From assembly GCA_030141605.1 (NCBI GenBank), contig JAQGDQ010001380.1, positions 1 to 43,584 of the forward strand: DNA of 43,584 nucleotides. The letters run 5' to 3'. The stretch comes from Tubiluchus corallicola. Its lineage: Eukaryota > Animalia > Priapulida. The notes beneath the pieces are model-generated. The model made no database searches. It was not told the origin of the DNA and saw only the letters and a program-made list of their open reading frames with translations. Made by a program: the position numbers and the translations under genes. Of the stretch, positions 10,794 to 35,415 are shown in pieces; position 1 is the first letter of the stretch; the number at the start of each line of letters is the position of its first letter.

Positions 10794-11427
10794 ATGAAGT
10801 TGCTGATCACAGCTGGAGTTTACCTAATAACTCTGTTCACAGTTGGTAAGGCGCAGTGCCCTTGTGATCCATCTTGGCAGTGCAACTGTTTCCCCATAGA
10901 AGTTACCACAGCGGACTTAAGCAAGAATAATCATACAAACTCACCAAGCACGTCTATCAACTGTCAAATGATTTGCTTGTGGAAACACCTGCCCCCAGCA
11001 AATGTGCAGAACCTCTCAAATACATTACCAAACGCCATTCGTGAACTCAAGGTTATGAACTACGCCAGAACTGAACTACCTGACAAATTTTTGACAGGAA
11101 AAATGATCGAGAAACTGATAATATTCGAGTCGAACGAGTTGAAACGCATAGGTGAAACCACGCTGGCAGCCGACGCCATTGGTGTATGTTTGTGGAACCT
11201 GGAAGAGCTAAGAGCAATTGCCTCTAGGGCCTTCCAAGGAATGAAACATTTGGAATACCTCCACATTATGCATTGTTGGAAACTAATATCAATTACAGAG
11301 CATTTATCTTTCATTCACAGTCCAAATTTACGCAACATTGCTATTGATGGAACATCTATAGAACGACTCCGAGAACCCAAACTACACAGCAGAGCACTGA
11401 ATAGAATTTTTATAATTTCTTTGACAG
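10794..11427 (+). CDS. Nested LRR-mucin surface protein paralog 1, exon 1 (signal peptide, LRRNT, ~5 LRRs)
   Basis: Signal MKLLITAGVYLITLFTVGKA, cap CPCDPSWQCNC, LxxLxLxx repeats; donor G|GTGACT, phase 1; lies in CGRRF1 intron 2 on the opposite strand. Confidence 0.85.
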
Positions 11428-11444
11428 GTGACTGGTAACAAAGC

Positions 11445-11730
11445 AACAGGAGAAAAGTCACAGAAATGTCACGATTTTGGCTAGGAAAAAAATCACAGGA
11501 GAAAGTGACAATTAATTTTGGTTGTGGTTAGGGTTATGGCAATTTATTTTTTCTTGAACCTTTTTCGCCTGTGACTTTTTTACCTGTGACTTTTTTATCT
11601 GTGACTTTTTAGCTGAATATTTTTATTTGTGACTTTTGTCTATGGCTTTTATACCTGAATATTTTTATTTGTGACTTTTCCTGTGACTTTCTTATCTGTG
11701 ACTTTTTACCTGTGATTTATTAGCTTGGAT
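11445..11730. repeat. Insertion with GTCAC/GTGAC inverted sub-repeats (MITE-like) just after the LRR1 donor
   Basis: GAAAAGTCACAG units on the left versus CTGTGACTTTT units on the right; a donor-like TTGACGGGTGA reappears at ~11735. Confidence 0.5.
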
Positions 11731-11762
11731 TCCCTTGACGGGTGAATTGCGATTAGACTAAA

Positions 11763-12043
11763 GGAGCATTCAGACTAGCGAGTTTTCTCAGCAACTAACT
11801 CACAAGTGCATTCAGACTAGAGAGCAAAGTTACTCTCGCTTACACTCACTTATCCATTCACTGCAAGAAGTGTCAAGAGTAACTCGCCAAAGCGTTCACA
11901 CCACGCAGTGAATCAACTCGCAGCAACTGTCGGAGAGTTTGCAATTTCTTGCCGACAGTACCTCGCAAAGGAGTAACTCACATTTGCGAGTTTGCTGTCA
12001 CAGAGAAAACATGCGACAGAAAACTGCCTGGTCTGAATGCACT
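11763..12043. mobile_element. MITE, PIF/Harbinger-like termini
   Basis: GGAGCATTCAGACTAGCGAGTTTTCT versus inverted AGAAAACTGCCTGGTCTGAATGCACT; superfamily assignment is tentative. Confidence 0.55.
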
Positions 12044-12305
12044 TGCGAGTTATTTGATTATCTGCAGATGTTTTTGCAGATAGTCTGAACACGCCTTTTT
12101 ATGCATTACTATTGACAAATTTTCACCAAAGCAGAAAAGCAATGGTGACATGCAAACGGTTTCATGTACAATATGGCACATCTTTTCTATATCGACATTG
12201 AACTTAATTATGTGACTTTAATGGTGAAATTATCGTACGTCCGATAATCTCAGAAAATCTGTCTATTATTATAAGCTATGCATTTCAGTCATTATGTTTT
12301 TGCAG

Positions 12306-13177
12306 ATAATCAAATCAAATGCAACTGCGACATAAACTGGGTTTTCGGCAAACCGTGGAAGCTACATGAGATTGAATGCAAAAAATGGAGAAACTCCGGA
12401 TATAGTACACTTAAATCGAATAATCTCACATATTGCTACACCACTAGAGTGAGCTCAACTGTTGAAATGTCTACTACAGGAAGAGGGTCAACCAGAATGT
12501 CATCAAAAATAAGCTCATCTAGTACTCTGTTACACAGTGAACTCCATAGAGACACAGTTACACAGTCCATAGAGAGCTCAACTGCTCAACCTTCTACAAA
12601 GAGCTCAACCATCAAACTGTCTACAGTGAGCTCAACCAATAGGTCATCTACAAAGAGCTCAACCATCAATCTGTCTACAGTGAGCTCAACCACCAAGTCA
12701 TCTACAGTGAGCTCAACCACCAAGTCACCTACAGTGAGCTCAACCAATAGGTCATCTGCTGTGAGCTCAACCACAAAGTCATCTACAGTGAGCTCAACTG
12801 CTAAGCTGTCTACAGAGAGCTCACTGACAACTATTAAGTTATCTACAGTGAGCTCAACCACTAAATCATCTACAGTGAATTCAACTACTAAGTCACCTAT
12901 ATTGAGTTCAACCACCAAATCATCTACAGTGAGCTCAACTGCTAAACTGTCTACAGAGAGCTCATTGACAACTATAAAGTCATCTACAGCAAGATCAACC
13001 ACCAAGTCGCCTACAGTAAACTCAACCATTAGCCCATCCACAGCGAGTTCAACTACAGACCAGTCTAGTACCGCAAGCAAGATGTACGGCATACAGTGTG
13101 AAACGCATGTAATTGCAGTAATACTTTTTTTACTGTCTTTACAAATGCCAGCATTTCTGTATGTAAAAAGTTGTTAG
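12306..13177 (+). CDS. Nested LRR-mucin paralog 1, exon 2 (LRRCT, Ser/Thr/Lys stalk, hydrophobic tail); spliced protein 501 aa
   Basis: TTTTGCAG|AT phase 1 gives DNQIKCNCDINW; 27-bp STVSSTTKS repeats; C-terminal VIAVILFLLSLQM; AATAAA at 13213. Confidence 0.85.
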
Positions 13178-13724
13178 AATTCTCTCTTTAATATTGAAAT
13201 TTTGTCAAAGTTAATAAACTTTTTACTGATACATCACATAATTAACTGTACCGCGCATTACTACTAATTTTAATGGCAAAGCCTTAACTAGCTAGTTAAC
13301 ATAAGATGTGCCGTGGAATATTTTTGCTGTTGAAAATTATGTTAGTTTGTGATGTCATCAATAGTTGAGCTCGCCTAGCATTAATTAAAATTTTCAACCA
13401 TCATTTAGCTATCAAAAATGCTTTCGCAGTATTATTGGCATTAAAATGTATACTTTTTTACTGTCCTTCAATATGAGGTAGTAAATGAAAAATCATTCTA
13501 TCTTCCTGTTAAATGGCTGTACCTAATAGTCATTAGATTTACAAGTTTTACGCAGTGCTGCTGCTGGAACTAGTTCTATGCGTAATAAGATAGCCCGTAA
13601 GTGACAAAAACTTGAAGACGATGTTTTAGCTTGATAATTATATAATAAGAATGGTGTTTGCTCGAATGAATGTTAGTCTGGAATGGGCCTAACAATAACA
13701 ATTGTAAGGAGCCAAGCAGCTTAC

Positions 13725-14207: not shown

Positions 14208-14224
14208 AGGGTACACTAAGCTGT

Positions 14225-14372
14225 AGTTTGTCACGTGACCAATACACAAGTACAGTACAAGCTGTAGAGCGGTATACAACTTTTTAATGTTTACACATCT
14301 TACCAGCAAAATGAGATAGCGCCTCTCTATTGACAAGTAATGGCAGCGTGCGTGCTGAAATGACAAGTGAGT
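14225..14372. promoter_or_regulatory. Putative bidirectional promoter CGRRF1/POLR1F
   Basis: Palindromic GTCACGTGAC (E-box/CLEAR type) at 14230-14239 with adjacent CCAAT; plus-strand GTGAGT donor at 14367 could join the acceptor at 17318-17319. Confidence 0.45.
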
Positions 14373-16167: not shown

Positions 16168-16754
16168 TTTTTTTATAGAGTCCCCTCACTACCTGAATCA
16201 TCAATTTAATAATCTAATCTTGAATTATCAATTTAACTAAATCTCTTTACTAAATGATCATTAGACACCCCTGGGCATGAAAATTAATGTTGTCAGTTGA
16301 ATTAATTAGTTAATCCAAAATAAATTAAATGCTATAAATTGGGTCAATAGAATAGCGTCAATCTTGCGTAAACTATAATTAGCATTTTAATTTTGAGTGA
16401 AACACAGGTCAAGTTTGTTGTGTAATAATAAAAAACTTTGGATTAAGAATACAGCGAATCAACAAGAAGAATTAATACATTTTTGATTCAACTTCATCAT
16501 GTCCAGGTTTATTGAGTAAAGATGAGTCCACTGATTTTGGACAATAACAATACATTTTTCAATTTGCTGACTGGACAAATATTTAGTTGTACAAGTTTTT
16601 GTAATAATTTTGTAAAGGAGAGGTAAGATTTGTGCAATCTGTGCACAATTTCTGAATCTTTACTTATAAGATACATGTAGCACCACGGTATGAGTTTACT
16701 AATTGTTCTGCAAAGAAGAGGAGAAAGACAAAGCATTTACTGATATTATGTTAA

Positions 16755-17211
16755 CCCTTTCAGTCCCAAATTATTTTTTTAATAAAAAAAATTTTTTTGG
16801 CTTGGTACTTTTGTTCAGTATGTCCATCTTGTTTACATATAATAATTTTTTTCTACCTGTGCCCGCGTGCTAAATATAGCCTGTATCCCACGGGATACAT
16901 TGGGATTCAATGGAAGCATAAAATGTGCTTCATTTTGCAACTGGTGATAATTTTTTAAAGTATTTAAGACATTTAGTATGCACGCTATGCTGATCTGTAC
17001 AAAGTCGTCTCTAAAGTACTGTACCTTGCGCAGTTTTTTATGCTATGTAGATTTTCTAGTTTGCCATTTTATCACCATTTTTAGTCTATTGCTATTGGCT
17101 TAAATCAAAATAACTATCAACAGATCAAATAACTGTCAGTTTTAAAATTTTATTAATTTTAAAGGCAGAAAATATTCTCTTATCCCACGGGATACAACGG
17201 GTATGAACGGG
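16755..17211. mobile_element. piggyBac-type MITE, copy 1
   Basis: TTAA|CCCTTTCA...TGAACGGG|TTAA; inverted homolog at 20270-20707. Confidence 0.85.
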
Positions 17212-17323
17212 TTAATATCAGTATTGGTCAGTGGATTCACTGATTTAGACGTCATAAGCAATGTTGTCTTAATCTCTTATTAAAGTCTCTTTTATCATTG
17301 AAATCATTTTCTTTTTTAGGCTA

Positions 17324-18064
17324 ATGAACGCTTCTCTGGATTTCAAATCAATAGAAAAGCTTCTGTCGGACGAATATTCTCTATTAACGAAGATCGAGCA
17401 CAGTAGAAATGTTTCACTATCCCCCATGTACATAGGCAGGTGGAGAAGCGGCATAGAGGCGTTGCTTGACAAGGAAATGAATGTGTTTTCCGAACAGTTG
17501 CAAGGCGTCATGGTCGCGTACCGGAAACTGAAGATCCGGCAAAGGATGGGCTCTCTACAGGACTGCCAAACTCATGTCAATTTCACCGTTTTGTACGACG
17601 CCATTGTGTTTCGACCGCACGTTGGCTGCTTCCTAAAAGGAGTCGTCAACAAAATCAGCCTATCGTTTATCGGATGCATCGTGCACGGGTGGTTCAATGC
17701 GTCCATTCATAAGCCGAAAAGTGGCGCCTCGGAGTGGTCGCAGCTTCAGTTAAACTTTGGCGATGAAATTGTATTTCTAGTGGAGAATGTGAAAACTCGA
17801 AATAACTTCATACACATTAATGGCAAGTTGACTGAAGATTGGGTTGAAAGAACAAAGAAACTTTGTGAGGAGAATAAGAACTCTGTCGTGAAAGAGCCGT
17901 TGACGTTTTCTTCCGCAGTTTCTCACAATAGTACAGACTTAGTGTACGGCGATGGTGTCAAGAAAGAAGAAGAGGAAGAAAGAGTGAGTGAAAAGCACAA
18001 AAGGACAGATGAAATGGACCCTCCTAAAAAGCATAAACATAAAAAAAGCAAAAAGAGCTTGTGA
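17324..18064 (+). CDS. POLR1F: DNA-directed RNA polymerase I subunit RPA43 (TWISTNB)
   Basis: VSLSPMYIG, LQGVMVAY, IVFRPHVGCFLKGVVNKISLSFIGCIVHGWFNASI (Rpb7-like N-terminal and OB domains) and a Lys-rich tail; splice acceptor ends at 17319, 4 nt before the ATG. Confidence 0.92.
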   Translation: MNASLDFKSIEKLLSDEYSLLTKIEHSRNVSLSPMYIGRWRSGIEALLDKEMNVFSEQLQGVMVAYRKLKIRQRMGSLQDCQTHVNFTVLYDAIVFRPHVGCFLKGVVNKISLSFIGCIVHGWFNASIHKPKSGASEWSQLQLNFGDEIVFLVENVKTRNNFIHINGKLTEDWVERTKKLCEENKNSVVKEPLTFSSAVSHNSTDLVYGDGVKKEEEEERVSEKHKRTDEMDPPKKHKHKKSKKSL

Positions 18065-18690
18065 CTGGATACAAAGTGTTTGTGATTGGATACAGAGAGT
18101 TTGTGATTGGACGCAGAGAGTTTGTGATTGGACGCAGAGTTTGTGATTGGATACAGAGTTTGTGATTGGATACAGAGAGTTTGTGATTGGATACAGAGAG
18201 TGTTTGATTGGACACAGAGAGTTTGTGATTGGACGCAGAGTTTGTGATTGGATGCAGAGACGATTTGTGATTGGACAGAGAGAGTTTGTGATTGGATACA
18301 GAGAGTTTGTGATTGGACAAAGAGAGTTTGTGATTGGACACAAAGAGTTTGCAATTGGACACAGAGGGTTTGTGATTGGATACAGAGAGTTTGTGATTGG
18401 ACGCAGAGAGTTTGTGATTGGATACAGAGTTTGTGATTGGATACAGAGAGTTTGTGATTGGATGCAGAGAGAGTTTGTGATTGGATACAGAGAGTTTGTG
18501 ATTGGACGCAGAGTTTGTGATTGGATACAGAGTTTGTGATTGGATACAGAGAGTTTGTGATTGGATGCAGAGAGAGTTTGTGATTGGATACAGAGAGTTT
18601 GTGATTGGACAAAGAGAGTTTGTGATTGGACACAAAGAGAGTTTGCGATTGGACACAGAGGGTTTGTGATTGGACACAGAGTTTGTGATT
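18053..18690. repeat. 20-24-bp minisatellite (GAGTTTGTGATTGGATACAGA) x ~29 beginning at the POLR1F stop
   Basis: Visible tandem units; the first unit overlaps the TGA at 18062-18064. Confidence 0.95.
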
Positions 18691-20229
18691 TTTTTGTGCC
18701 ACTTATAGGACAGTAACGGAGATTTTTGTGTTGAAATGCTCTAAGGAAAAGCATTTCCCTAGGACAGTGAGGGAAATTGCACATTTTTCGTCAGATGATC
18801 CAGATTTTTTTCATTTACTCAACGAATGGGATTTTTTGTTAAACTTTTCTTATTGTTTTCAATTTGAGAGAACTGTAATCAGTTCATGTGTAACTGCAGT
18901 CTTTTATAGCAGAAAAAATCAAATAAACTCTAACTTATTACAAAAGCTTTGATTGCGAAAATTGAAATATGTGAGATCACAAAACTGATGTTAATTATTT
19001 TTTATTTTTTTCAGAATTAGCTGACAATAACTTAGAAATGTAAACTACGATAACAACACTTACCGGTGATAACAATTCACACTGTTCTCTTTCATCTTAG
19101 TACAAAAGACGTAGTTTAACAACTTGTTTTATTACAAGCGTGTCTATTTTTTATAACAGGCACATTTATAGTTAGAAACAACACAACTTTATTAAATTTT
19201 TTAGTTAACATAGTCAAAAATGATGTCAATCGTATTATACGACTTATTAATAAAAGAAAGTTTATCTGTGTACCCTAATAAGCCTTCTCTTAATGTACAA
19301 AGCAGTTCAATTCCTTTAACTTTATTTTCAAACACTTAGCTATTTGTGAATGTATCAATTTCTTTGTTGCTTTCCCCACTTTCCAGTGATCCAAAAAGTC
19401 CCTTCCAAGACCCCCGCTAAACGTCACTTAGACGTTTTTACTACGTGGCGTTTCCCCAATGAGCAAGAAGCGACAATTTTTTTCAAGGTTTCGGTCACCG
19501 TTCCTACAAGAAACAGCGCGGAAAACGTTCTAATTTCGCTTCGGAGTCTTAGGGAGAATTTACAGGTCTGTGAAAAAAGAAAACCGAGCTACACGACGAT
19601 TACGATTATGATTAATTAGTGCATAACAGGCTTTGCCTGTATAAACTGGTTGCATGTTTGTAAATTTACCACTGGTGATGACAGCAGCAGCTTGTCAAAA
19701 CGTTTGGCAAGATTTTTAACTATGTAAAGTAGAAGTTTTAATAAAGTTGTGTTGTTTTTAACTATAAATGTCTCTAGTACACTATCATAAAAATTTCGTA
19801 TAAAGGTACCTCAAAGATATAAAATCACATTAAAAAATAGCACCGTTCTACATTCACAGAATTATTTTTGACAAGTGTAAAGTGTTAGTATTATTTCTTA
19901 TAGATATTAGATAAATAGGTAAATATTTTTCATAGATATTAAAAACAAACAGCTGTGTGTTGTTTATGTAGCTTGCGGATGCAGATGCGTTTTTCACCTG
20001 CAGAACACAGCCTGTGGAAACAAAACAGTGTGAAATAACTGCAGAAATAAATAATTTGGTGCATTGAAAACAATATAAACCGATTTTATCTATTCCGCAA
20101 CCGCGAGAGACAAACATGTACTGTTTTAATGTGCATAGGTAAAAAACGTAGGCAAAATACAAAATGGCTTCGAGCAAAGTAAAAAAAATCGCAACTACAA
20201 CAAAAGCGAAAAAGGTGGCACACGATCTG

Positions 20230-20725
20230 CGACGTTAAAACGAAACGTCGCTAAATGGGGAGTTGTTAACCCTTTCATACCCGTTGTATCCCGTGGGATA
20301 CGAGAATATTTTCTGCCTTTAAAATTAATAAAATTTTAAAACGGACAGTTATTTGGTCTGTTAATAGTTATTTTGATTTAAGCCAATAACAATAGACTAA
20401 AAATGGTGATAAAATGGCAAACTAGAAAATCTACATAGCATAAAGAACAGCGCAAGGTACAGTACTTTAGAGACGACTTTGTACAGATCAGCATAGCATG
20501 TATACTAAATGTCTTAAATACTTTAAAAAATTATCAGCAGTCGCAAAATGAAGCCCATTTTTTGCTTTTGTTGTGTTTTTAAAACAGCCGGACTTTGTTT
20601 TTTTTGCACATGACAAAGAATGTTGTGTATCCCACAGGATACATTGGGAACAAAAGTTCCAAGCCAAAATTTTTTTCTTATTAAAAAATGATTTGGGACT
20701 GAAAGGGTTAAGCGAGGACTCACTG
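20230..20725. mobile_element. Right end of a pogo/Tigger-like element, interrupted by the piggyBac MITE
   Basis: Removing 20270-20711 restores ...AAACGAAACGTCGCTAAATGGGGAGTTGTTAAGCGAGGACTCACTG, homologous to the terminus at 33260-33297. Confidence 0.7.
20270..20707. mobile_element. piggyBac-type MITE, copy 2 (inverted relative to copy 1)
   Basis: TTAA|CCCTTTCATAC...GACTGAAAGGG|TTAA. Confidence 0.85.
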
Positions 20726-20860
20726 TGTAAACAACGTGCCAGTATTGGGTCTGAACGAACATAAGTACAATGACTAGATGCACAAAACTAAATCCTCCAC
20801 AAAGTGTTTGTTTTGCACAAACTGGTAAATTTACCTCAAGCACCTCTAGGAAGCCATTAT

Positions 20861-21130
20861 ATGGCTTCATTTCAACTCACATTAATACTGAAACATTACA
20901 TGGCTTCATTTCAACTCACATTAATACTGAAACATTACATGGCTTCATTTCAACTCACATTAATACTGAAACATTACATGGCTTCATTTCGACTCACATT
21001 AATACTGAAACATTACATGGCTTCATTTGGACTCACATTAATACTGAAACATTACATGGCTTCATTTTGACTCACATTAACACTGAAACATTACATGGCT
21101 TCATTTTGACTCACATTAATACTGAAACAT
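20861..21130. repeat. 39-bp minisatellite x ~7 just downstream of the PGGHG stop
   Basis: Unit ATGGCTTCATTTCAACTCACATTAATACTGAAACATTAC. Confidence 0.9.
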
Positions 21131-21184
21131 AACAGTTCAATTCATTTTTCTAAAAAAAAAAAAAAAAACACATTTCTTCTACAG

Positions 21185-21488
21185 TCACGGTAGATAGTCT
21201 GAAATTGTCCAGGCGATCACGGCCACCGCAGCAGCCAGTAACAACGCTGAGCAAGAAGGTACGACGTCTCTTCCCGCCGACTTCACCGTCGACATGACGG
21301 CAACGTGGCTGAGTTTAAACTGGAGACCTTTGTTCAGTTCAAGAGGAAAGAATTCTTTCGTTTCGTAGAAATAAATCCTGAAGAGTTGTCGAACGTCGGC
21401 GTTGGACGTCATGACGAATTCAACGATCTCTTGATTCCATCTGATCGTGAAAGCCGCTCCGAGGTAATCGAGGTGGGTGATGGTCATT
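21185..21488 (-). CDS. PGGHG: PGGHG/ATHL1-like GH65 glucosidase, last exon (hydrophobic C-terminus)
   Basis: TCCAG|A ATG phase 2; MTITHLDYLGAAFTIRW resembles the GH65 C-terminal domain; TGA at 21185. Confidence 0.75.
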
Positions 21489-21604
21489 CTGGATAATAAA
21501 GAAATAAAGATTATTAAAGGAAAGGTAAACATATTTACTATGTACAGTGTCAAACACTCATATTGTGATTCCGTGCTGCTTTGTGTGTTGTGAGGCTGTC
21601 AAGT

Positions 21605-22272
21605 ATATGTGTGCTTGCACAGCAAACTCTTGCATAAGTCGGCAGTTAAGCTTTTCTGTTGTTCACTCATCCTGAATCTCCATTTCATGAGGATCATTTT
21701 GATACAAAGTTCATCGCTTTATGTTATTTCTAAGCTGAGATAATCCACGTTGACGTTGAGGTGCAGGCTGCACACTGAAAAACATAACCTTGAGAAAATC
21801 ACTGTTAAAGTCAGCCATTGTTTTTTGTCTCGTTTCTACAAAACACTTAGCAACCGCACAAACGTTGGTTGCTATGGACTTTGCAGGAGCACATTGAAGT
21901 TATGTTTAAATCCAGTAGATTGCTCTTCCTAACAAAGATCTGGGTTTGGCAACAGAAAAAAAACTTGAAGCAAAATGACTGCTTCCACAAGCTACTATCA
22001 AACTTTGAAAATAAGAGTTCTTTACAACTGCAGCACTAGTTCCTATACACAAAAATGGATAAGGAGTGATAAAATTAGATTTTTTGTATGTTTTAAACAT
22101 TTTCTTGATAATGCTTTGTTAGAATATAAAAGTTCGATATATTTAGCATTTGTTTTTTTATAAAAAAAGAAATTGATATTTGATTAAATGTTTAATGCAT
22201 TCTATTTTGAAGCATCATAACTTAGTTTTAACGATGCCAACTTAAGGACGGTTTTAGTTTGCAAGCACACAA
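21605..22272. mobile_element. MITE family B full copy (partial copy follows at ~22375-22635)
   Basis: ATATGTGTGCTTGCAC...TGCAAGCACACAAAT TIRs; internal homology to 4075-4622. Confidence 0.8.
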
Positions 22273-23460
22273 ATAACATAATTTAAAAGGTGTGGAATGA
22301 AGCTTCTCATTTAGGAGTTTGAAAGATATTTTAGCAGCATTTCAGCTACGACAACGCTGCCTTCTGTTAGTTTCATTGTGTTGTACAGTTGCTAAGTGTT
22401 TTGTAGAAACACAATAAAAACAATGGCTGACTTTAACAGTGATTTTCTCAATATTATGTTTTTCAGTGTGCAGCCTGCATCTCAACTTCAATATGGATTA
22501 TATCAGCTTAGGAATAACATAGAGTGATGAACTTGGTATCAAGATGATCCTCATGAAATGGAGATTCAGGATATGTGAGTAACTAGAAAAGTTTAGCTGT
22601 TGCTTGCCGGATGTTTTTGATATGCAAGCACAAAATGCCTCAGAATTTTCCGCAACACACAAAAATAACTACAGTGTTCACCGATTTCGAAAACTGGCCC
22701 ATAGACACCATTTATTATAGTATTACACGAGTGCAGAATGCCCAGAATTTGTGTAACAGGAGGCTGTAGTAAAGAAACAAATGATGATGTTAGCCTTTTT
22801 CAAGTTTCACGGCCCGAAAGCAGACAGTAAATGGCTAGAATTGTAATTGCTAAACACCTGCTAAGGCTCAAATACGCCAATTTGTTACCAGGCATGACGA
22901 TTCCTGCCTTGACGTCATCAGTGAGTGGTCGCTGTTAGCCATTTCAAGTGTCCCGACCGGAAAGCGGACACTAGGTCCGCTAGAGTTGTACTCGCCATGA
23001 TTGTGTGTGAACAGTAAACACTGCTAAGGCTCAAATACTCCTGCCTTGACGTCATCAGTGAGTGATCCGTCAATGACGTCTCGCCCGATCATAGATTTAC
23101 ATGTGGCAATTGGAGTATGTAAAATCGACAAATTATTTACTTAATTAGTTAATTGTGTTACAAAAGCAACTGGAATGTCATTTCAAAACGTGCTCCTCAA
23201 ACTTCTGCTAAACTTGTTGGCGAGACGGGGCTTTTACTTTAAGCAAAATCGTGGCTATTCAGTCTAACACAGTCATCTACAATGTTTCAACCACAACGTG
23301 GTCGTGATCACACAACTCACCTAATAAGAACATAAGGTATAACATTTACGCGTATGTTTGTGATCGCAACAGCTCATAACACCTCATTTTATCTTTGCTT
23401 CATTACATTCATTGTCATTCAATCTGTTTTGTAGCTTTACATTAACTTCGAACATACTGA

Positions 23461-23810
23461 TACAGGGGCGCCAGCAGCAAATTACAGGGGCAGGGCAGCA
23501 AATTACAGGGGCACCGGCAACAAATTACAAGGGTACCGGCAACAAATTACAAGGGTACCGGCAGCAAATTATAGGGGCACCAGCAACAAATTACAGAGGC
23601 GGGGGCAGAAAATTACAAGGGCGCCGGGAGCAAATTATAGGGGCACCAGCAACAAATTACAGAGGCGGGGGCAGAAAATTACAAGGGCGACGGGAGCAAA
23701 TTATAGGGGCACCAGCAACAAATTACAGGGGCACCGGCAGCAAATGACAGGGCACTGGCAGGAAATTACAAGGACAGGGGCAGCAAGTTACAAGGGCAGG
23801 GGCAGCATTT
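23461..23810. repeat. ~20-bp GC-rich minisatellite (CAAATTACAGGGGCACCGGCAG variants)
   Basis: Visible tandem units. Confidence 0.85.
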
Positions 23811-24256
23811 ACGAAAAGGGCACGTTTTATTTACCCACATTTCTGTGGCTACACTGATGACAATATGACTTATGTATAAAGGTATGTCTAAGGCACCCCA
23901 AATGCCTTCTGTTTCTCACATAGTCCTTTTAAATAAACTAGTATTAGTAAATTACTTTTACTAATCATACTATTCAGTATAGTAAATATACTGAGAAATA
24001 TATACAAAGCACATATACATGATTTGGCTTCATACACGGTGTGGCTTCGTCGTTACTGAATCGTTTACATTTTCCTGTAAACTTTTTTGGGGTAATCATG
24101 GATAACCACACATTTTTCCATCAAAACGGCACAGTTCTGCTCCCGCGCTGCCCCCGCCCTTGGGAAAGGGCAAGACGGTCGCTGCACACCAGCACCCCTG
24201 CAGCGGTACGCCACAAAGGTAACTGCACTTGATAGAAAGAATGATGAGCGTCTTAC

Positions 24257-24408
24257 TCTTTAGTGTTGGCTGGCAACACCGGATTAAAATCCAGGCGATC
24301 CTCTCGTATTCGGATGCCTCCATAACCGAAGAGAAGTGCTTGGAGAAATCCTCCCATCCCGGTAATAAAATTTACCGCCCCTTTTGCATCCTTTACTTCC
24401 GACCAGAT
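24257..24408 (-). CDS. PGGHG: PGGHG-like exon
   Basis: IWSEVKDAKGAVNFITGMGGFLQALLFGYGGIRI, a hallmark PGGHG motif; TTTAG acceptor, GA|GTAAGA donor. Confidence 0.92.
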
Positions 24409-24539
24409 CTAAAAAAACAGGAACACAATTTTATCAATGTAAAACAATTGCAGAAAATCTCGCAAATGGCTTAATAAAAGACTATTTAAATTTAATTTTA
24501 TAATTGTAGATGTACAATATATGAATGAATTTCACTTTC

Positions 24540-25133
24540 CAAACTTTTAAAATTTTAGTATCGTATTAATTTTAGTATCGTAATAGCTCGTGAAAGCAGT
24601 CACTTTGCTTCGGGTTTTTTCTTCTGACAAGCCCAGATCTTCGTCTGGAAGAGCCATCTACTGGATTTAAACATAACTTCAATGTGTTTTTGCAAAGTCC
24701 GTAGCAACCAACATTTGTACGGTTGCAAAGTGTTTTGTAGAAATGCGACAAAAAACAATGGCTGACTTTAACATTGATTTTCTCAAGATTATGTTTTTCA
24801 GTGTGCAGCCTGCACCTCAACTTCAACGTGGATTATCTCAGCTTAGAAATAACATAGAACAATGAACTTGGTATCAAAATAATTCCCATGAAATGAAGAT
24901 TCAGGGTGTGTGAATAACTAGAAAAGCTTAATTGTCGACTTATGGATGATTTTGGTATGCAAGCACACTCAAACGGACCTCAACTTCAGCGTGGATTATC
25001 TCAGCTTAGAAATAACAAAGAGCAATGAACTTGGTATCAAAATGATCCTCATGAAATGGATTCAGGATACGTGAATGTCTGGAAAACCTTAATTGCTGAC
25101 TTATGGATGACCGTGGTATGCAAGCACACATAT
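24540..25133. mobile_element. MITE family B, two tandem partial copies
   Basis: Homologous to 4240-4622; TGCAAGCACA ends at ~24968 and ~25130. Confidence 0.75.
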
Positions 25134-25343
25134 AGAAGTTGTTTAGCTTGCTTTTCACAAAGTAAATTATATATATATATAATATTAGCATTATATAAGC
25201 ATATTATAAGACATATATAATTAGCATTAATATATATATATATATTACATTTTTGTTGAGACCATTTACTTTATTTGGAGCAACTTAATAGTAATAAGAG
25301 TAATTTCTGTAGTCACTCTGTACACAACGTCTCTCAATTCTAC

Positions 25344-25472
25344 CTTAAACGGAGGCACGATGTGTTCAAAGTTTTTCTGAAACAGCTCCGCTGCTTTCTT
25401 GTAGTCACCAAGTTCCAACCAGCCAACAGTGAACATTCCCCACGTCATTGCCGGTCCGGTTGGACTTGTCAC
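25344..25472 (-). CDS. PGGHG: PGGHG-like exon
   Basis: VTSPTGPAMTWGMFTVGWLELG...PFK, 129 nt, phase 0/0. Confidence 0.92.
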
Positions 25473-25571
25473 CTAGAATGAACACGAACGGCTCATTTCT
25501 ACGCAGAATTCCACTTAGTTGAGCGTAAATGAACGTAGAATCGTTGCAGTAACGTTTTGTAAATGAACATA

Positions 25572-25890
25572 TCAGACTAAAGCATAAACAACGAGCCATG
25601 CGAATGTGATTAGACTAAAGAATAAACAAAAAGCCATGTGAATGTGATAAGACTGAAGTATAAAGAACGAGCCATGCAAATGTGATAAGACTGAAGCATA
25701 GACAAAGAGCCATGCGAATGTGATAAGACTAAAGTATAAACAAAGAACTGCGCGAGTGTGATAAGATTGAAGTACAAACAAGGAGCCAGGCAAATGCGAT
25801 GAGACTGAAGTGTAAACAAAGAGCCATGCAAATGTGATAAGACTGAAGTATAAACAAAGAACTGCGCGAGTGTGATAAGATTGAAGTAAA
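25572..25890. repeat. ~40-bp degenerate minisatellite
   Basis: Unit approximately AGACTGAAGTATAAACAAAGAGCCATGCAAATGTGATA. Confidence 0.85.
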
Positions 25891-26630
25891 CACTGATGAT
25901 GACAGCAGTGTCTCTGTCGAAATAATTTGACATGATTTTTTAACTATGTAAATTAAAAGTTTTGATAAAGTTGTAGTGTTTTAACTAGAAATGTTTTTAA
26001 GTGCCTGAAATAAAAAAAAATTGACTCAACGAAAATTTTCTTCTAACATCTGTAAGTGCCAATTCAACTGTCTTGCAAAGAATATCCGAAAATGACGATC
26101 TAAAAATGAGTTGCCCAGACGTTGCCGTAGAAACAATTTTTCGTTTCTGAGCAGACACGAGGAGGAAAAACAATTTTTACGGGAACTTATTCTTTGATAA
26201 AACCAAATGAGCTTTTGGAAATTTTCTGTAATTTCCGATTTTTTCAGGCAAATTTAGTTGGAGTCATTTCTGCCGTTATTTTTAGAAAATGACATCGAGC
26301 CCAAAATAATCTGTTCAAAACAACCAGCAATCTATTTCAGTCTGCGCATTTCTTACCAAAAATATTTTAATGGTCTTAGCCAATGCACAAAGAAAATTTA
26401 AAAAAATATCATTTTTCACAACAGTGTATGAATTTTCCGCAAATTCGAATGTAACCAAATGAACAGAGGAAAGAATATGCTTTAGCTTGCCCAACAGCTA
26501 ACGGTCATCCACCCAACACACTGCCGTAAGGTACAAAGCTTAACTGAGAACATCTGCCATATACATGTGTTATCAAATTTTAACAGCTGCTTTACCGGTG
26601 CTGCCATCTAGGGGTGAAAATAGTACTTAC

Positions 26631-26731
26631 ATCTTCGTATATAAGCAGATCATTTTTCCTAACTGACTCTGGCATATCATACATAAGAGGAAAACCCAGT
26701 AATATGACATCAGCCTGTTTCACCATATTAT
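26631..26731 (-). CDS. PGGHG: PGGHG-like exon (KQAD motif)
   Basis: NMVKQADVILLGFPLMYDMPESVRKNDLLIYED; phase 1/0. Confidence 0.92.
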
Positions 26732-26899
26732 CTGCAAATATAAATTTTTCACATACAATGCACAGTTATTTACAATATCAGCTGAACATCGACTGCTTTA
26801 CTGAATATCTTCGAAGCAGCGAGCAAAGGGCATACAGGCAAGTTTGCTAACACATAGAAAAGTGCCTTCTGCTGAACCCTTTCATTATGTTGCTGCTTT

Positions 26900-26973
26900 T
26901 TAACGTCTGCATATCTGCAACTTCTTGTGGTGTGTTACTAAAATAGAATCTTGTAAATATTAGTTTTATGTCT

Positions 26974-27011
<38 letters not shown>

Positions 27012-27095
27012 GAACATATACCAATGCACTCACACACACACAGACGAACACACACACACATGCACTCTCACACACGCACGCACGCACACACAAAC

Positions 27096-27135
<40 letters not shown>

Positions 27136-27290
27136 GTGCAGAGCCTCATAAATAAACATGTGCTTATATTTAGAAACCAGTTTTCACAAAAGACACAATA
27201 CTAGTCCATAATGTGCAATCATTTTATAAGACTGCAGGACAATCAACTAAACATACGTTTCATCAACGATCTACAAGTGATTTTGTGTGG
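26900..27290. repeat. Dispersed repeat with internal (CA)n; inverted copy at ~37820-38135
   Basis: CATACGTTTCATCAACGATCTACAAGTGATTTT versus its reverse complement at ~37824-37857. Confidence 0.7.
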
Positions 27291-28680
27291 CACCTGGCTT
27301 CAGATGCTGATTGGCTGGTTAGCGTTACTTGTTGTGAAGCAACCCCAATCCCACGGCTGTCAAACGTTTCAAAAACGTCTTGCGTGGCCGTAGCAGTGAA
27401 ATAAGCAGACCTGGGTAACTGAGCTTAGTCACTTGGCTTGGGCGGCGGTCTACCGCCTTCCATAGTGAAAGGGTTAAGTTTTTTTAGCCTTATTTCTAGC
27501 AGTAGAAATGGTATAAAGTACAGGTACTTATCCACTTATGACCTATGTGACTTACAACCATTCGACTTTACGACCCCGACCGCGACTTAAATGAAGATGG
27601 GGTGATTTTTCACATCACTTACATGCTGTCTTATTGCACGCAGGGCTTGCATTTTAGCAGTAACTCTGTATAAAACTTATGCGGTAAGACCTCGCTTAAC
27701 GACGCCAATGCATTCCAGCGAAACCTCCAATCTCTCGTACCATATTTAGTGACATAGTTTAAAATTCCCATTCTGATGTGGTTAGTAAGCATTAATAATT
27801 TATGATCACTAATTCACTGATCATTTTCGTGGGTGTTACAAGTTGAAATGTTGTAATAAATTGTTACCTAAGATATGGTTTCGCATTTGAAGCAAATGTA
27901 TAGTTATGATAAATTAACAAAAACATAGTACGTTATATGCAGATTGTATATTAGGTCTACAGGTAGATTTTCTATACGTATTAGTCATTCGTACCTTTCA
28001 CACACCCATATTTCAAATGCACGCGTTTTGTAAATTCCCAATTATAATTTCTGCACACAATGAAAATTACTTATATCATTATGTAAAATTACTTATATTA
28101 TGTAAACTTGACCTTTTGCGCATTTTGATGAATACTACACAAACAAAAATGTTTCTGCTATATTATGCTCTATATTATGCTCAAAGCAGACATTTTGCAT
28201 AAACAAACCTAATTTCACAGTATTAACTTTTAAACACGTGATATGATATGCACAAAATAATGCAACGTGTGCAAGTTTAAGACTATCAACACCAGTGACT
28301 CAGGAAAGGCAGTTTCAATTTAAAAGAAGGATACAGAACATTTTACCATCATTTGGAGAAATATTTAAAAGCAGCTCAGTACTGGCAGCATTCTTCGTTA
28401 CTTTGTGGTGAAATTTGGATGAAAGTTTATTGCCTTATTACTAAAGATTCTATACCAAGTGCTGCTAATTGTGAATTACTATTAGAACTATTATTGCTCG
28501 GTCTTAGTTACTTACAACAAACTAGACAATTCTTAGTGATCTATAAATCTGCTTTATTCAACACGACAAAACTGAAACTGTGAATTAATCTGAGCTTGGT
28601 TCAAGTTGAGAAACGTGGCTATACCATTTCAGAAGAGTCAACTTTTATTTTCATTGCTGTTCCAATTATTTGTGCCACAG

Positions 28681-29260
28681 ATGAAGTCGTCAATCAAAGT
28701 TGGATTTTATCTGATGTCTCTGATCACGGTGTGTAGTGGATGGAGCGCATGTGATGATCCGTCTTGGCAGTGCAGATGTGATTATTGGGAAGATTTGGAT
28801 TGCTTTTGGGGAAATTTGTCCCTAACAGACGTACAGAATATTTCAAATACATTACCAAAAGATATCGACATGCTCACGATTTACAACTATTCAAACAGTG
28901 AATTTCCAGACAAATTTTTGGCAGGAGAAAAGATGAACACTTTGCACATTAGTCACTCCAAGCAGCTGAAACGCATCAATGAAACCAGTATAGCAGCTGA
29001 CATCAGGATATTAGCCTTGCGTGCCCTCAGTGCTTTAGAGACAATTGACTCAATGGCATTCCAAGCAATTACAAGACTGGAGGCTCTATATATTTTGGAC
29101 TGCTACCAGCTGACATCGATTACTGGGCACTTGTCTTTTACACAAAGTCCAAATCTGATTCACATTTACATTGAACGGACATCCATGGAAATACTTAAGG
29201 AGCCAAAACTACACAGCAGCGTACTGAATAGCAGCAATTTTGTACGGATTAACTTTTGGG
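28681..29260 (+). CDS. Nested LRR-mucin paralog 2, exon 1
   Basis: Signal MKSSIKVGFYLMSLITVCSG, cap CDDPSWQCRC, LRRs colinear with paralog 1; donor G|GTGAGT, phase 1; a CAG acceptor directly before the ATG suggests an upstream UTR exon. Confidence 0.85.
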
Positions 29261-29491
29261 GTGAGTTCAATTCAAATTTTTGACTAACAACTTTCAGCAG
29301 AGCACGAAGCCAGTGTGGTCAATTGAATACATTTATGTGTCATAAGATTTAATGAAAACAGTGTCCTTATAATAGGTGAGCAAGTTTGTCTTACGTGATG
29401 CTTTAGGTAAAACTTCTTTCACTATTCTTATAAGTTTTGTATTTTAATGGTTGTTTTGCTGTTGTTGTTATCGTTGTTGCCATTTTTATAG

Positions 29492-30540
29492 AAAATAATT
29501 TCACATGCGACTGTGACATCAGTTGGGTTTTCAACAAACCGTGGAAACTAGTAAGAGATTTTCAATGCCGACAATCAGAAAATGGAAATTACAAAACAGC
29601 TACAAAAGCAGACTTTGACTATTGTTACGATGCAACAAACCAAACCACTGAGTCATCTACAGAGAGCTCAACCACTGAACCGTCTACAGAGAACTCAACC
29701 ACTGAGCCATCTACAATGAGCTTAACCTCTGAGTCGTCTACAGTGAACTCAACCACTGAGTCATCTACAGAGAACTCAACTACTAAGCCGTCTACAGAGA
29801 ACTCAACCACTGAGTCGTCTACAGAGAACTCAACCACTGAGTCGTCTACAGAGAACTCAACCACTGAGTCATCTACAGAGAACTCAACCACTGAGCAGTC
29901 TACAGAGAACTCCACCACTGAGCCGTCTACAGAGAACTCAACCACTGAGCCGTCTACAGAGAACTCCACCACTGAGCCGTCTACAGAGAACTCAACCACT
30001 GAGCCGTCTACAAAGAACTCAACCACTGAGCCGTCTACAGTGAACTCAACCACTGAGCCGCCTACAGAGAACTCAACTACTGAGCTGCCTACAGTGAACT
30101 CAACCACTGAGTCGTCTACAGTGAACTCAACTACTGAGCTGCCTACAGTGAACTCAACCACTGAGCCGTCTACAGTGAACTCAACTAGTGAGCCGTTTAC
30201 AGAGAACTCAACCGCTGAGTCGTCTACAGTGAACTCAACCACTGAGTCGTCTACAGGGAACTCAACCACTGAGTCGTCTACAGGGAACTCAACCACTGAG
30301 CCGTCTACAGAGAACTCAACCACTGAGTCGTCTACAGAGAACTCAACCACTGAACCGTCTACAGTGAGCTCAACTAGTAAGCCATGTACAGTGAGTTCAA
30401 CCACTAGGCCACCTACAAAGAACTCAATCACTACAACATCAGCTAGCTCTTCAAGTGAGCTGTATGGCACACAATGTAAACTGAATGAAGTCTTTGCACT
30501 AGTATTCTTAGTTTTAGCAAGTCACCTTTTTTACCTGTAA
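29492..30540 (+). CDS. Nested LRR-mucin paralog 2, exon 2 (LRRCT, acidic STENSTTEP stalk, hydrophobic tail); spliced protein 542 aa
   Basis: TTTTATAG|AA gives ENNFTCDCDISWVFNKPWKL; 27-bp repeats; ends VFALVFLVLASHLFYL; AATAAA at 30765. Confidence 0.85.
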
Positions 30541-31704
30541 AAATGCCACCAATACAGCTATTCTCAGTAAAAAGACATTAGCACCGCCATAGTCATTCAG
30601 TAAAAGCGCCGCGTGGCTAAAAGCAGCCACATTAGAAGTGATAGTTACGAATCAATATCATAAATTGAAAGTAATAATTTAGCCTCATCATAACATAGTG
30701 AAAGATTCATCCCAGACCGTAAAAGTTCTGACAGTCTTTCCTGCATGTGATTTATTCCTTTTTAAATAAACAAGGCGCTTCATTTTGAGAGGGGAGATTT
30801 TCTGTGTTAAAAAGTCTTGAAGTTGAAAAAGGAAGTTAATTTTTGAAAGTCAACAAAATTCAAGCTAACAAAGAACTGAGGGAAACCCTCATAATTGTTA
30901 TTACTGTTCTTTTATCCACTGACCAGTGGCCAACCATAAGAGCCAGTAATTCTATTGCTAAGTGTGTTGCTATAGATAAGAATAGGTAGAAAAACAATTA
31001 CACTAGTTAGAGATGTAAGTCTTTGGGAAGCAATAAGATGGATCATGTCAGAGATTAGAAAATTAAGAAGTTGAAGTGATGCTAAACTATTCAGGTTGGT
31101 GATTGTGTGTAAAGCAGATAGACGACCATTTTATACTATTAACATAATAATATGCCATAATAATATAACATGATATACACATTCATTATGTGTGCACAAT
31201 AGCCAGCACTGCTGTTAGATGTTGCGTTTGTCAACAGTAATATTATATTGCGAATGAAATATAATCAAGGAAATGGTTTGTGTCAGCATTTTCCTCTCCA
31301 GAATTCGTCCATGTTTGTCAGGATAAATTATTGTTACAATAAAATTAATATTTTATAATTTAAATATAGCTTTTGTTTTTTAATCTAACGAGGAGAGTTT
31401 ACACAGACTGTGTTTGTTTTAAAATAAATATTTGCTTATATCTTAAAAGCAGTCAACAAGTAGACATGTTTTAGCTACGAGCATGCAGATGCATAGCACA
31501 CTTGGCTAATCTAAATTTTATTAACGTGACTCTCAATCAATTAATCAATTTATTTCACTCCAGCAATACATATACAATACATCAACATACAATATTATTG
31601 AAACAAAAAGAAACAGTATAGGTAAAAAACCCATTTATGAAGTCAAATTAACCAATAGAAAAGAGTTGCTGTATGACACCTTGAAAGCTTGGCTTGTTAG
31701 GGTG

Positions 31705-31985
31705 GCGCAAATGAGTGAATGAAAGAATGGTTAGGGTTAGTAGACATGATGGAATGGAAAAAAATAGTAAGATTAGGGATAGGAAGAAGGAATGGAGGGG
31801 AGGATGAGTGAATGAAAGAATGGTTAGGATTAGTAGACATGATGGAATGAAAAAAATAGCAAGATTAGGGATAGGAAGAAGGAAGGGATGGGAGGATGAG
31901 TGAATGAAAGAATGGTTAGGGTTAGTAGACATGATGGAATGGAAAAAAGTAGTAATATTAGGAATAGGAAGAAGGAAGAGAAGAA
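31705..31985. repeat. ~92-bp purine-rich tandem repeat x3
   Basis: ATGAGTGAATGAAAGAATGGTTAGG...GGATAGGAAGAAGG repeated. Confidence 0.85.
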
Positions 31986-32235
31986 ACGACCACAGTGTAT
32001 GTTTAATTTACATAGAGCTATATTAAAATAGCATTATAAATGACTGGAGGCTATAATTTATATAATAAGCACGTTTAATAATTGCACTGTTTACATTACT
32101 AATGCATTTTTAGAACAGAATAATGCAATATATGCCATTCTGATGCTTCAAATAAGTAAAAATGTCGCTGAAAAATGAAAATTGGTTTCAGCAAAGTTAA
32201 AATGAAATGTGTGTTATTAATTGGGAAAAGGTGAA

Positions 32236-33280
32236 ATGTTCAAGGTCGTTAAAACAAAACGTTGCTAAACAGGGAGTCGGTAATCTAATGTTCAGGGTCG
32301 TTAAAACAAAACGTTGCTAAACAGGGAGTCGGTAATCAAATGTTCAGGGTCGCTAAAACGAAACGTCTCTAAACAGGGAGTCGGTAATCTAATGTTCAGG
32401 GTCGTTAAAACAAAACGTTGCTAAACAGGGAGTCGGTAATCAAATGTTCAGGGTCGCTAAAACGAAACGTCTCTAAACAGGGAGTCGGTAATCTAATGTT
32501 CAGGGTCGTTAAAACGAAACGTCTCTAAACAGGGAGTCGGTAATCTAATGTTCAGGGTCGCTAAAACGAAACGTCTCTAAACAGGGAGTCGGTAATCAAT
32601 GTTCAGGGCGTAAACGAAACGTCTCTAAACAGGGAGTCGGTAATCTAATGTTCAGGGTCGTTAAAACGAAACGTCTCTAAACAGGGAGTCGGTAATCTAA
32701 TGTTCAGGGTCGTTAAACGAAACGTCTCTAAACAGGGAGTCGGTAATCAATGTTCAGGGTCGTAAAACGAAACGTCTCTAAACAGGGAGTCGGTAATCTA
32801 ATGTTCAGGGTCGTAAAACGAAACGTCTCTAAACAGGGAGTCGGTAATCTAATGTTCAGGGTCGCTAAAACGAAACGTCTCTAAACAGGGAGTCGGTAAT
32901 CTAATGTTCGGGTGCTAAACGAAACGTCTTAAACAGGGAGTCGTTATGTTCGGGTCGTAAAAAACGTCTCTAAACAGGGAGTCGGTATTAATGTTCAAGG
33001 TCGTTAAAACAAAACGTCTCTAAACAGGGAGTCGGTAATCTAATGTTCAGGGTCGTTAAAACGAAACGTCTCTAAACAGGGAGTCGGTAATCTAATGTTC
33101 AGGGTCGTTAAAACGAAACGTCTCTAAACAGGGAGTCGGTAATCTAATGTTCAGGGTCGTTAAAACGAAACGTCTCTAAACAGGGAGTCGGTAATCTAAT
33201 GTTCAGGGTCGTTACAACGAAACGTCTCTAAACAGGGAGTCGGTAATCAAATGTTCGGGCTCGTTAAAATGAAACGTCGC
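32236..33280. repeat. 52-bp minisatellite x ~20 derived from transposon subterminal sequence
   Basis: Unit AATGTTCAGGGTCGTTAAAACGAAACGTCTCTAAACAGGGAGTCGGTAATCT; runs into the right TIR. Confidence 0.92.
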
Positions 33281-33780
33281 TAAGCGAGGACTTACTGCAA
33301 ATTTAAATTCCAGCATTGACGGTTAGACGCAGCCATTTTAACGGTGAGTCGCTTGAAACAAGTTTAGATAACAAAGTTTAAAAATACACAGAGCATCCGT
33401 AGCACATGTTGTCAATAAGATCAAAAATAGTTTTTTTGCGAGCCTGTGGTGCGCGCTGGGAAGTTGAGTCGGTAATGCTTTACCAGTCGACACATCTAAT
33501 TTATCTTAAATTGTTAAGTTCTTTCTAGTTAAATAAGTCTTATAAGCAGGTGAGGGTAATGCAAAGTAATATGACTTTGTGTGGAAAGTTTCTTGGGGAG
33601 CACTTGAATATTGTTTTTTCTTCCCTATTAAGCAAAGCAGCTCTCAGTAAAACTACATTAGTACAGCAGTTTTCTCCATTATCATGGAAGCAACCACGAC
33701 TGCTGTTATATTGATCATACTCATTCACAAAAAAAAGCAAAATAAGCAAAAACAACCAACTTACTAACTAACTAACTTAC

Positions 33781-34020
33781 TAGGCTTTCCCTCTGCGCTC
33801 AACGTCTCGTTATCCTTGAAGTTGTACCCGTCAAACTCTGGATGATACTGGTACGTATGACTGAAAGGCATGTGCAACTTCTCGGCAATTTCCGACCAAC
33901 TCTTGGGAAATGTCTTCTCCGGATATGTCCTCTTCGGAAGCGTCAGACTGAGGTTGGCGACGTAGTTGGTGTAGATGGAGTTGTTGACTGGAAAGTGCCA
34001 TTCGTCCGGCGGCATAACTC
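33781..34020 (-). CDS. PGGHG: PGGHG-like exon with catalytic PDE motif
   Basis: GVMPPDEWHFPVNNSIYTN...YHPEFDGY; 240 nt, phase 1/1. Confidence 0.92.
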
Positions 34021-34266
34021 CTGGAGAAGAGAAAGATAAGAAGTCAGGTAAGAGTGGAAATCTTCTTTGTAGTAACTGATGAGAGGCGCTAAATTAGAAA
34101 AATCAATTTAGATAAATAAAAAAACTTTGCCCATACCATGGAAATAAATACATACGATAACTCTTACTACATGCATGCCAAGGTCATCTTACTGAACTTA
34201 TAATCAAATGACAAAATTACCGACAAACATTAACATTTTAGCGGACACACGTCTCGAAATACAAAC

Positions 34267-34464: not shown

Positions 34465-34514
34465 CTAAAATATGTTTCATATCCACAGTTTCTTTTGAAA
34501 AATCAAAAATCATT

Positions 34515-35415
34515 AGTAGACAGGGCCACCCTTAGGAGGTTTCGGACCCTACTGGAAACAATTTTGGTAAGCCAAAAATTCCCAGTTAGCAGACAGGGCC
34601 ACCCTTAGGAGGTGTGAGGCCTAGTGGAAACAGTTTTGGTAGGCGCCAGGTTACGAACTAGTAGATAGGGCCAGCCTTAGGAGGTTTCGGACCCTACTGG
34701 AAACAATTTTGGTGAGCCAAAGGTTCCCAGTTAGCAGGACAGGGCCAACCTTAAGAGGTGTGCAAGACCCTACTGGAAAGAATTTTGGTAGGCGCAAGTT
34801 TCCGAACTAGTAGACAGGGCCAGACTTAGGAGGTTTGGGGCCCTACTGGAAACAGTTTTGGTAGGTGCCAGGTTACGAGCTAGTAGACAGGGCCAGCCTT
34901 AGGAGGTTTAGGCCCTACTGGAAACAATTTTGGTGAGCAAAAGGTTCCCAGTTAGCAGGACAGGGCCAACCTTAAGAGGTGTGCGAGACCCTACTGGAAA
35001 GAATTTTGGTAGGCGCAAGGTTCCGAACTAGTAGACAGGGCCAGCCTTAGGAGGTTTCGGACCCTACTGGAAACAATTTTGGTGAGCCAAAGGTTCCCAG
35101 TTAGCAGGACAGGGCCAACCTTAAGAGGTGTGCGAGACCCTACTGGAAAGAATTTTGGTAGGCGCAAGTTTCCGAACTAGTAGACAGGGCCAGACTTAGG
35201 AGGTTTGGGGCCCTACTGGAAACAGTTTTGGTAGGTGCCAGGTTACGAGCTAGTAGACAGGGCCAGCCTTAGGAGGTTTAGGCCCCTACTGGAAACAATT
35301 TTGGTAAGCCAAAGATTACCAGTTAGCAGACAGGGCCACCCTTAGGAGGTGTGAGGCCCTACTGGAAACAGTTTTGGTGAACACTGCAAGTAGGTTCCCA
35401 GATAGTAGACAGGAC
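34515..35415. repeat. ~73-76-bp satellite x ~12 with three monomer variants
   Basis: Each unit contains ACAGGGCCA..CTTA.GAGG...CCCTACTGGAAA. Confidence 0.9.

Follow-up and report, generated by a model that had tools for sequence, protein, structure and literature searches.

How does a complete, intron-containing gene come to lie between the two ends of a transposon, and within the intron of an unrelated gene? This question is raised by a stretch of DNA from the priapulid Tubiluchus corallicola (contig JAQGDQ010001380.1, positions 1 to 43,584; this whole stretch of 43,584 nucleotides is referred to as the window), in which two terminal inverted repeats (TIRs) bracket a gene for a leucine-rich repeat (LRR) protein with a mucin-like region, termed LRR-mucin gene in the following. 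The initial annotation had interpreted the structure as a Pack-TIR, into which the gene was either loaded as cargo before its arrival in the intron or copied later on. According to our analysis, the structure is real and well supported, and it works like a single-copy Pack-TIR that is unusually large and complete. With respect to the two proposed routes, the gene most likely did not arrive by transposition but was copied into an element that had long been resident, probably by template-switch (gap-filling) repair; capture in place is preferred because only a single joint between TIR and cargo was observed, because the sister copies have boundaries without TIRs, and because the ends show more decay than the cargo, all of which makes an arrival as cargo less likely.

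The TIR element and its insertion site

Between positions 27401 and 33600, the two TIRs of 23 bp (27682..27704, plus strand, and 33275..33297, minus strand) form the sole non-overlapping inverted pair with 20 of 23 positions paired, in agreement with the three mismatches annotated initially, and they enclose a span of 5,616 bp. A pair of this kind was obtained in 1 of 40 dinucleotide shuffles, and the inverted repeat by itself is only modestly above chance. The structure is regarded as an element because its flanks form one contiguous host repeat, rather than because of the inverted repeat alone. The left half of this older repeat (27602..27679, plus strand) aligns with 43074-43154 and with about 13543-13604 on the minus strand, the right half (33300..33625, plus strand) with about 43157-43488. 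Formal alignment of the joined flanks with the empty copy at 43074..43488 (plus strand), which has a TA at the break, was gapless at this point, with 275 of 372 aligned letters identical and a score of 192.5, where 200 shuffles reached 45 at most, and the contiguity that had been noticed near 43085-43385 is thereby confirmed. To this empty site a second copy at about 13502..13604 (minus strand; alignment score 64) can be added, similarly with a TA at the break, and in both empty copies the break of the host repeat coincides exactly with the TIR edges.

In the occupied copy, the dinucleotides next to the TIRs do indeed read TG (27680..27681, plus strand) and CA (33298..33299, plus strand) instead of the expected TA. 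The stretch was also compared with public short-read (Logan) contigs, in which four runs match parts of it; runs X1 to X3 represent one sample, which may or may not be the source of the window. The contigs of X1 and X2 show no differences at the left target-site copy, while the right one is known from the assembly alone. In run X4, the consensus of eight loose ends of the TIR family places TA immediately before the TIR. These findings support the insertion of one TA-targeting TIR element in the older repeat, and the proposal that the gene postdates this repeat holds as well. The location in a PGGHG intron was likewise borne out by tblastn with P0002 and P0003, which identified exons on both sides of the element (33791-34021 and 26634-26732, minus strand), adjacent to an intron with the approximate edges 26733..33790 (minus strand); GH65 matches are found in neighbouring exons. 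The LRR-mucin gene runs antisense to this host gene.

The two arms of the element are different, one being a left-type and the other a right-type end. At the left, the TIR, which has a G at base 2 where the other two ends of the family in the window have an A, is followed by a remainder of the arm (27705..27723, plus strand) up to the position at which family likeness ends, so that 42 bp of the left end are left in total. Family pieces in X3 span 27682/4-27723/4 with four differences apiece, and seven X4 contigs diverge into different letters past 27723. The next 20 bp (27724..27743), located between TIR arm and cargo and covered by the junction contig alone, are a possible repair filler; no other site in the window resembles them at a limit of fewer than 7 mismatches over 22 positions. 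The captured segment (27744..32126, plus strand) comprises about 4.4 kb (about 4,383 bp), its left edge being set by the contigs and its right edge being the approximate start of likeness to a related element. This likeness defines the inner right arm (32127..32234, plus strand): positions 32127-32283 and 20113-20269 are identical at 110 of 150 positions, and their score of 84 stands against 47.5 for the best of 60 shuffles. It is followed by a 52-bp tandem array (32235..33283, plus strand) with 20.7 copies of a subterminal motif that is present as a single copy in the related end. Folding of the array is no better than that of shuffles (z -1.13), and fragility caused by hairpins is therefore unsupported. 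The element had been noted to lack a visible transposase, and none was found: the longest open reading frames (ORFs) outside the gene comprise 94 and 119 amino acids, and a Pfam scan of 14 ORFs of the element and three ORFs near the third family end returned no match to a transposase family. The summed contig depth of the left TIR is 134-fold (X1) and 149-fold (X2) that of the junction contig, which as a rough hint puts the TIR family at roughly 130-150 ends.

The frequency of similar pairs among the shuffles, the presence of a third, unpaired family end in the window (20233-20725), and a right junction that is known from the assembly with no read check would fit unrelated ends paired by chance or a mis-join in the assembly. 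However, both empty copies show the flanks as one contiguous sequence whose break falls exactly at the edges of the TIRs, the arms are of different end types, and the left junction exists in short-read contigs. At up to six mismatches, the whole window holds only three ends of the family, the two TIRs and the one near 20233; neither TIR therefore has a private partner, which also speaks against two separate miniature inverted-repeat elements, an alternative the initial annotation had named. Taken together, we regard an artefact as very improbable. The third end (20113-20725), again a right end, is 73% identical to the right arm of the element and is itself unpaired: a corresponding left end was found neither in 13901-20269 nor on the other strand of 13901-27000, where scores remained at shuffle level. 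Its TIR is interrupted by a TTAA-flanked miniature element, and at 20164 it contains a lysine-rich ATG frame of 24 codons with no Pfam match.

The joint between transposon end and cargo

The contig comparison of the junction concerns the left breakpoint only. Logan contigs drop rare variants, and the lack of coverage of 27731-27741 in X3 and X4 was therefore not taken to mean that the joint is absent there. Only one contig covers this section in X1 (depth 304.3) and in X2 (depth 13.3); the junction contig (27654-27787) shows no differences and bridges the TIR-cargo joint, with 70 and 64 letters to either side. The bins at 88% and at 80% likeness are equal (782.76 and 782.8; 45.02 and 45.0), and therefore no additional contig with a TIR-cargo joint occurs down to 80%. 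The same joint was not seen at several loci, as X1 and X2 each have one contig with one flank. Sister contigs (X1 record 6, X2 record 15, X3 record 24) begin to match at 27744 and carry 99, 64 and 157 unlike letters, respectively, ahead of this position; no TIR joint was identified in the 64-157 letters upstream of 27744 in these three contigs. Over the compared parts (27744-29630), contigs with 97-100% identity are present. From 27758 on, the TIR-linked path and a near-identical sister path fuse into one shared contig, with depths of 13.3 plus 22.3 versus 37.1 in X2 and of 304.3 plus 242.8 (the latter by subtraction) versus 543 in X1. Along the cargo, contig depths add up to at least 2.6-2.9-fold and in the median 6.6-8.9-fold that of the junction contig, values which are a hint only and no copy number. 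The LRR-mucin genes thus form a young family with multiple copies, whereas a joint to a TIR is single in the sample.

A fixed edge at 27744 common to three sister contigs, in combination with a multi-copy cargo, might also be explained by a cargo that is a mobile or duplicating unit of its own, Helitron-like or a segmental duplicon, which happened to insert into an old miniature element. The common edge is, however, equally expected if the sisters keep the ancestral upstream sequence and only the captured copy was cut. Moreover, an X4 copy loses its likeness elsewhere, at 27812, and a clean insertion would leave the inner left arm in place. Helitrons are characterized by a TC start, a CTRR end with a hairpin and insertion between A and T; no terminus or hairpin of this type was recognized by eye at 27715-27800 and 32040-32140, the right edge being uncertain. 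We thus consider a self-mobile cargo to be quite unlikely.

The data further favor ends that are older than the cargo. Of 50 positions at the ends, four have changed, among them positions in the two TA copies and base 2 of the TIR, compared to 4 of 284 in the cargo, counted between the window and the shared contig (p=0.02). The count for the ends omits the mismatch at TIR position 8, which likely is a built-in difference between left and right; with this position, the numbers are 5/50 and 4/284 (p=0.005), and the TIR family pieces yield 4/42 compared to 4/284 (p=0.011). Decay at the ends accordingly amounts to roughly 8-10%, that of the cargo relative to its sister to 0-1.4%. The changes of the left TA and of TIR base 2 are also present in the reads.

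In the course of events that we favor, a short-TIR transposon would have inserted at a TA in the older repeat within the PGGHG intron and would subsequently have decayed, with changes at the second base of the TIR and in the TA on either side. If the element then broke internally, repair might have copied 4.4 kb, including the whole LRR-mucin gene, from a near-identical member of the family, and the same event may have removed the greater part of the left arm and added the 20-bp filler. We infer the order of insertion, decay and capture, as well as repair as the mechanism and the concomitant loss of the arm, from the features of this single locus and the contigs that match it. Judged from the altered second TIR base and the two altered TA copies, this copy would no longer be able to jump, and the transposon would have served as a fragile landing site and not as a vehicle.

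Several points weigh against capture in place. The junction contig has 28 aligned letters left of the TIR, which is below the 31-letter bridging rule at this site, and the single-joint result has the scope of a single sample (X1-X3) and of the left breakpoint. The sites of the age contrast were picked after the fact; the right-end changes are from the assembly only and lie beside an array with 4% indels, and hence may be assembly errors, and the read-checked left end alone gives 2/25 compared to 4/284 (p=0.077) or to 2/298 (p=0.031). In addition, one of the sisters (X1 record 6) differs at 14 of 170 positions, like the TIR family pieces (p=0.76), and since the divergence of this 8%-divergent sister equals that of the ends, it fits an old capture that was followed by gene conversion. 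Finally, the letters upstream of the sisters could belong to this transposon family and represent its inner left arm; the sisters would then be Pack-TIRs as well, and the present copy would merely have lost its inner arm.

These points lead to the alternative that the gene is true cargo, which was captured elsewhere and reached the intron by transposition of the loaded element, a FoSTeST-type process as for Ssk-FB4, after which the inner left arm was lost from this copy and gene conversion kept the cargo copies alike. Such a history would account for an 8%-divergent sister that shares the 27744 boundary and has an age like the ends, it is in line with a young gene family that is multi-copy by the depth hint, and a left arm that ends after 42 bp leaves room for a later deletion. 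On the other hand, a recent jump predicts fresh TA copies and intact ends, whereas the reads, too, show changes in the left TA and at the second base of the TIR, the TIR-cargo joint is the only one down to 80% likeness, and the three sister contigs have no TIR in their 64-157 upstream letters. As two extra events, deletion and conversion, are also required, we judge true cargo to be unlikely, though worth serious consideration. We are slightly more doubtful still that a TA-type (pogo-like) non-autonomous transposon took up the LRR surface-receptor gene in full, together with its promoter, and distributed it. If this were the case, the young, fast-changing LRR-mucin family would be transposon-borne and correspond to Ssk-FB4 within the Tc1/mariner class, with a cargo larger than any known so far, and if the sisters turned out to be TIR-bound, the locus would represent a transposon-spread family of surface receptors instead of a repair capture.

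The captured gene and its relatives

The gene within the element is complete and spliced, as predicted initially. It consists of two exons (28681..29260 and 29492..30540, plus strand) that encode 542 amino acids without an internal stop, separated by a GT-AG intron in phase 1 (29261..29491, plus strand); an AATAAA motif is located 225 bases past the stop codon. Exon 1 encodes a predicted signal peptide, a Cys-rich cap and LRR repeats, exon 2 the C-terminal LRR cap, a Ser/Thr repeat with 27 copies of a 9-amino acid unit (29643-30374), and a hydrophobic C-terminal tail. This tail ends the protein with no residues after it, and for this reason we propose an anchor of the glycosylphosphatidylinositol (GPI) type; the product is thus predicted to be a GPI-anchored LRR protein of the cell surface on a glycosylated stalk. 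The Pfam LRR matches of exon 1 score under the curated cut-offs. Structural modeling of exon 1 resulted in a mean pLDDT of 85, and Foldseek returned weak LRR matches alone (best E 0.003; none at E 0.001), while comparison with the Atlas yielded generic LRR clusters only. A signal peptide, a capped LRR domain, a Ser/Thr-rich stalk and a hydrophobic C-terminal end also characterize lamprey VLRB and platelet GPIb-alpha, whose architecture is alike and whose folds are both among the weak Foldseek rows. The closest relatives outside the window are LRR proteins of 223-387 amino acids from Logan assemblies, with 27-39% identity. A search with the exon 1 protein among longer proteins confirmed none of 491 candidates at E 0.001, and none of the 112 pattern matches in a search for related loci in metagenome contigs was confirmed. 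In run X6, which is only guessed to be RNA, 3 of 30 bins are covered, all by the flank repeat, and this is evidence neither for nor against expression.

A second LRR-mucin gene in the window (10794..13177, plus strand; 501 amino acids, 877-bp intron) is an older paralog with 49% amino-acid identity in exon 1. It has its intron at the identical position and shares about 280 bp of homologous upstream sequence: the 5', promoter-proximal region of the captured gene (28402..28680, plus strand) corresponds to 10504-10793 of the paralog, with a raw local alignment score of 104 that extends into coding sequence and has no shuffle control. Because of the shared intron and upstream sequence, the capture includes the promoter region and represents a copy at the DNA level and not a retrocopy. 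The paralog as the source of the captured gene was rejected, given 49% amino-acid identity and a synonymous divergence (dS) of 1.27. The ratio of non-synonymous to synonymous divergence (dN/dS) between the two genes is 0.31 over 190 codons, which indicates constraint along the old branch and does not extend to the captured copy. For the young sisters, 20 of 22 listed variants in exon 1 (40 of 364 rows) are non-synonymous where 79% are expected (p=0.29), and these listed variants give no sign of purifying or positive selection. Many of the listed exon 1 variants of the sisters (X1, X2, X4) fall in the N-terminal cap. The paralog is located 15 kb from the element, and no TIR was found near it; the second empty copy of the host repeat lies about 330 bp beyond its stop codon.

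Neighbouring features and comparison with known systems

Apart from the element, the window contains two piggyBac-like miniature elements (16751-17215 and 20266-20711), which are 84% alike, inverted and flanked by TTAA on both sides. The pair encloses the gene for the RNA polymerase I subunit RPA43 (17324-18064, plus strand) and about 2 kb beyond; its coding region is uninterrupted, the stop enters a 21-bp tandem array, and one relative at 83% is present in Logan. A full-length 5S rRNA match (9635-9753, minus strand; 94 bits) is solitary with no surrounding array, and a C3HC4 RING-finger exon (2467-2811, minus strand) represents the end of a gene running off to the right. Minisatellite arrays with units of 21-106 bp are located at 5556-6101, 7166-8086, 15618-16167, 18054-18690, 20855-21130, 23461-23807, 25574-25888, 34514-35378 and 39101-40285, and may share the origin of the 52-bp array from a transposon motif.

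With respect to the type of transposon, the label pogo/Tigger agrees with the TIR length and the TA target. According to the literature, pogo/Tigger elements have a TA target and TIRs of less than 40 bp, with 8-33 bp for Tigger and 23 bp in one example (PMC7386202, PMC9219625), which is matched here by the 23-bp TIR and by the TA in the empty copies and ahead of the family ends in X4. In contrast, the present copy reads TG/CA, and neither a CENP-B helix-turn-helix nor a DDE transposase occurs in the element. As neither a transposase with these ends nor an autonomous partner was found, membership in pogo is not established. The TIR resembles the MER82 type of Tigger ends, a likeness that does not establish the superfamily. 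Scans for the TIR motif gave no match in metagenome or in viral contigs, collections that hardly cover animals.

In Tan et al. 2021 (PMC8277862), Pack-TIRs are defined by the two ends of a single TIR element, each with 10 or more terminal bases, around 100-5,000 bp of non-transposon interior, and by a parental copy with at least 90% identity and 80-120% of the length that is not flanked by the transposon. The element described here has both ends of one element, assigned with no TIR consensus library, an interior of 100-5,000 bp and a DNA-level copy. According to the same source, 91 of 97 primate single-copy Pack-TIRs have an orthologous cargo-free element in outgroups, gap filling independent of transposition was inferred for most single-copy cases, and in a Pack-Tigger1 example the target TA has decayed to CA (PMC8277862). 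The present element is similar in its non-transposon DNA between the ends, its single copy, its old shell with a decayed TA, a probable near-identical source and the retained intron. It differs in the about 4,383 bp of its cargo, which comprises a spliced gene in its entirety plus the region upstream, in antisense orientation relative to the host gene. The cargo of the reported Pack-TIRs consists of fragments with a median length of 224 bp; among the 370 entries of Supplementary Data 1, gone through by eye, the largest cargo is a 3,585-bp ARF6 retrogene in hAT and the largest TcMariner entry has 1,804 bp, in a search that was limited to 5 kb and included few invertebrates (PMC8277862). The cargo of about 4.4 kb is larger than all 370 listed cases. 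In the literature within reach, with most subscription papers outside it, no whole spliced gene in an animal TA-type shell was found.

The locus suggests that a dead short-TIR element can acquire a complete spliced gene, promoter included, through repair, and that such repair capture gives rise to nested genes in introns of unrelated genes and to dispersed duplicates without the marks of retrocopies. A gene between TIRs should accordingly not be equated with a gene moved by a transposon. Animal Pack-TIRs are known mostly as small, non-coding fragments, and Ssk-FB4 of Drosophila melanogaster is the one whole spliced gene in this source (PMC8277862). Similar to the element described here, Ssk-FB4 is reported to be a near-whole, intron-containing gene for a membrane protein, with its 5' region, in a non-autonomous TIR element, and to have a short unexplained insert at one breakpoint, 45 bp in length compared to 20 bp here. 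However, Ssk-FB4 is MULE-like, with TIRs of about 700 bp and target duplications of 9-10 bp, has reached three loci by transposition and is expressed, while the element of T. corallicola has 23-bp TIRs, a TA target, one joint, and a gene that is known from sequence alone.

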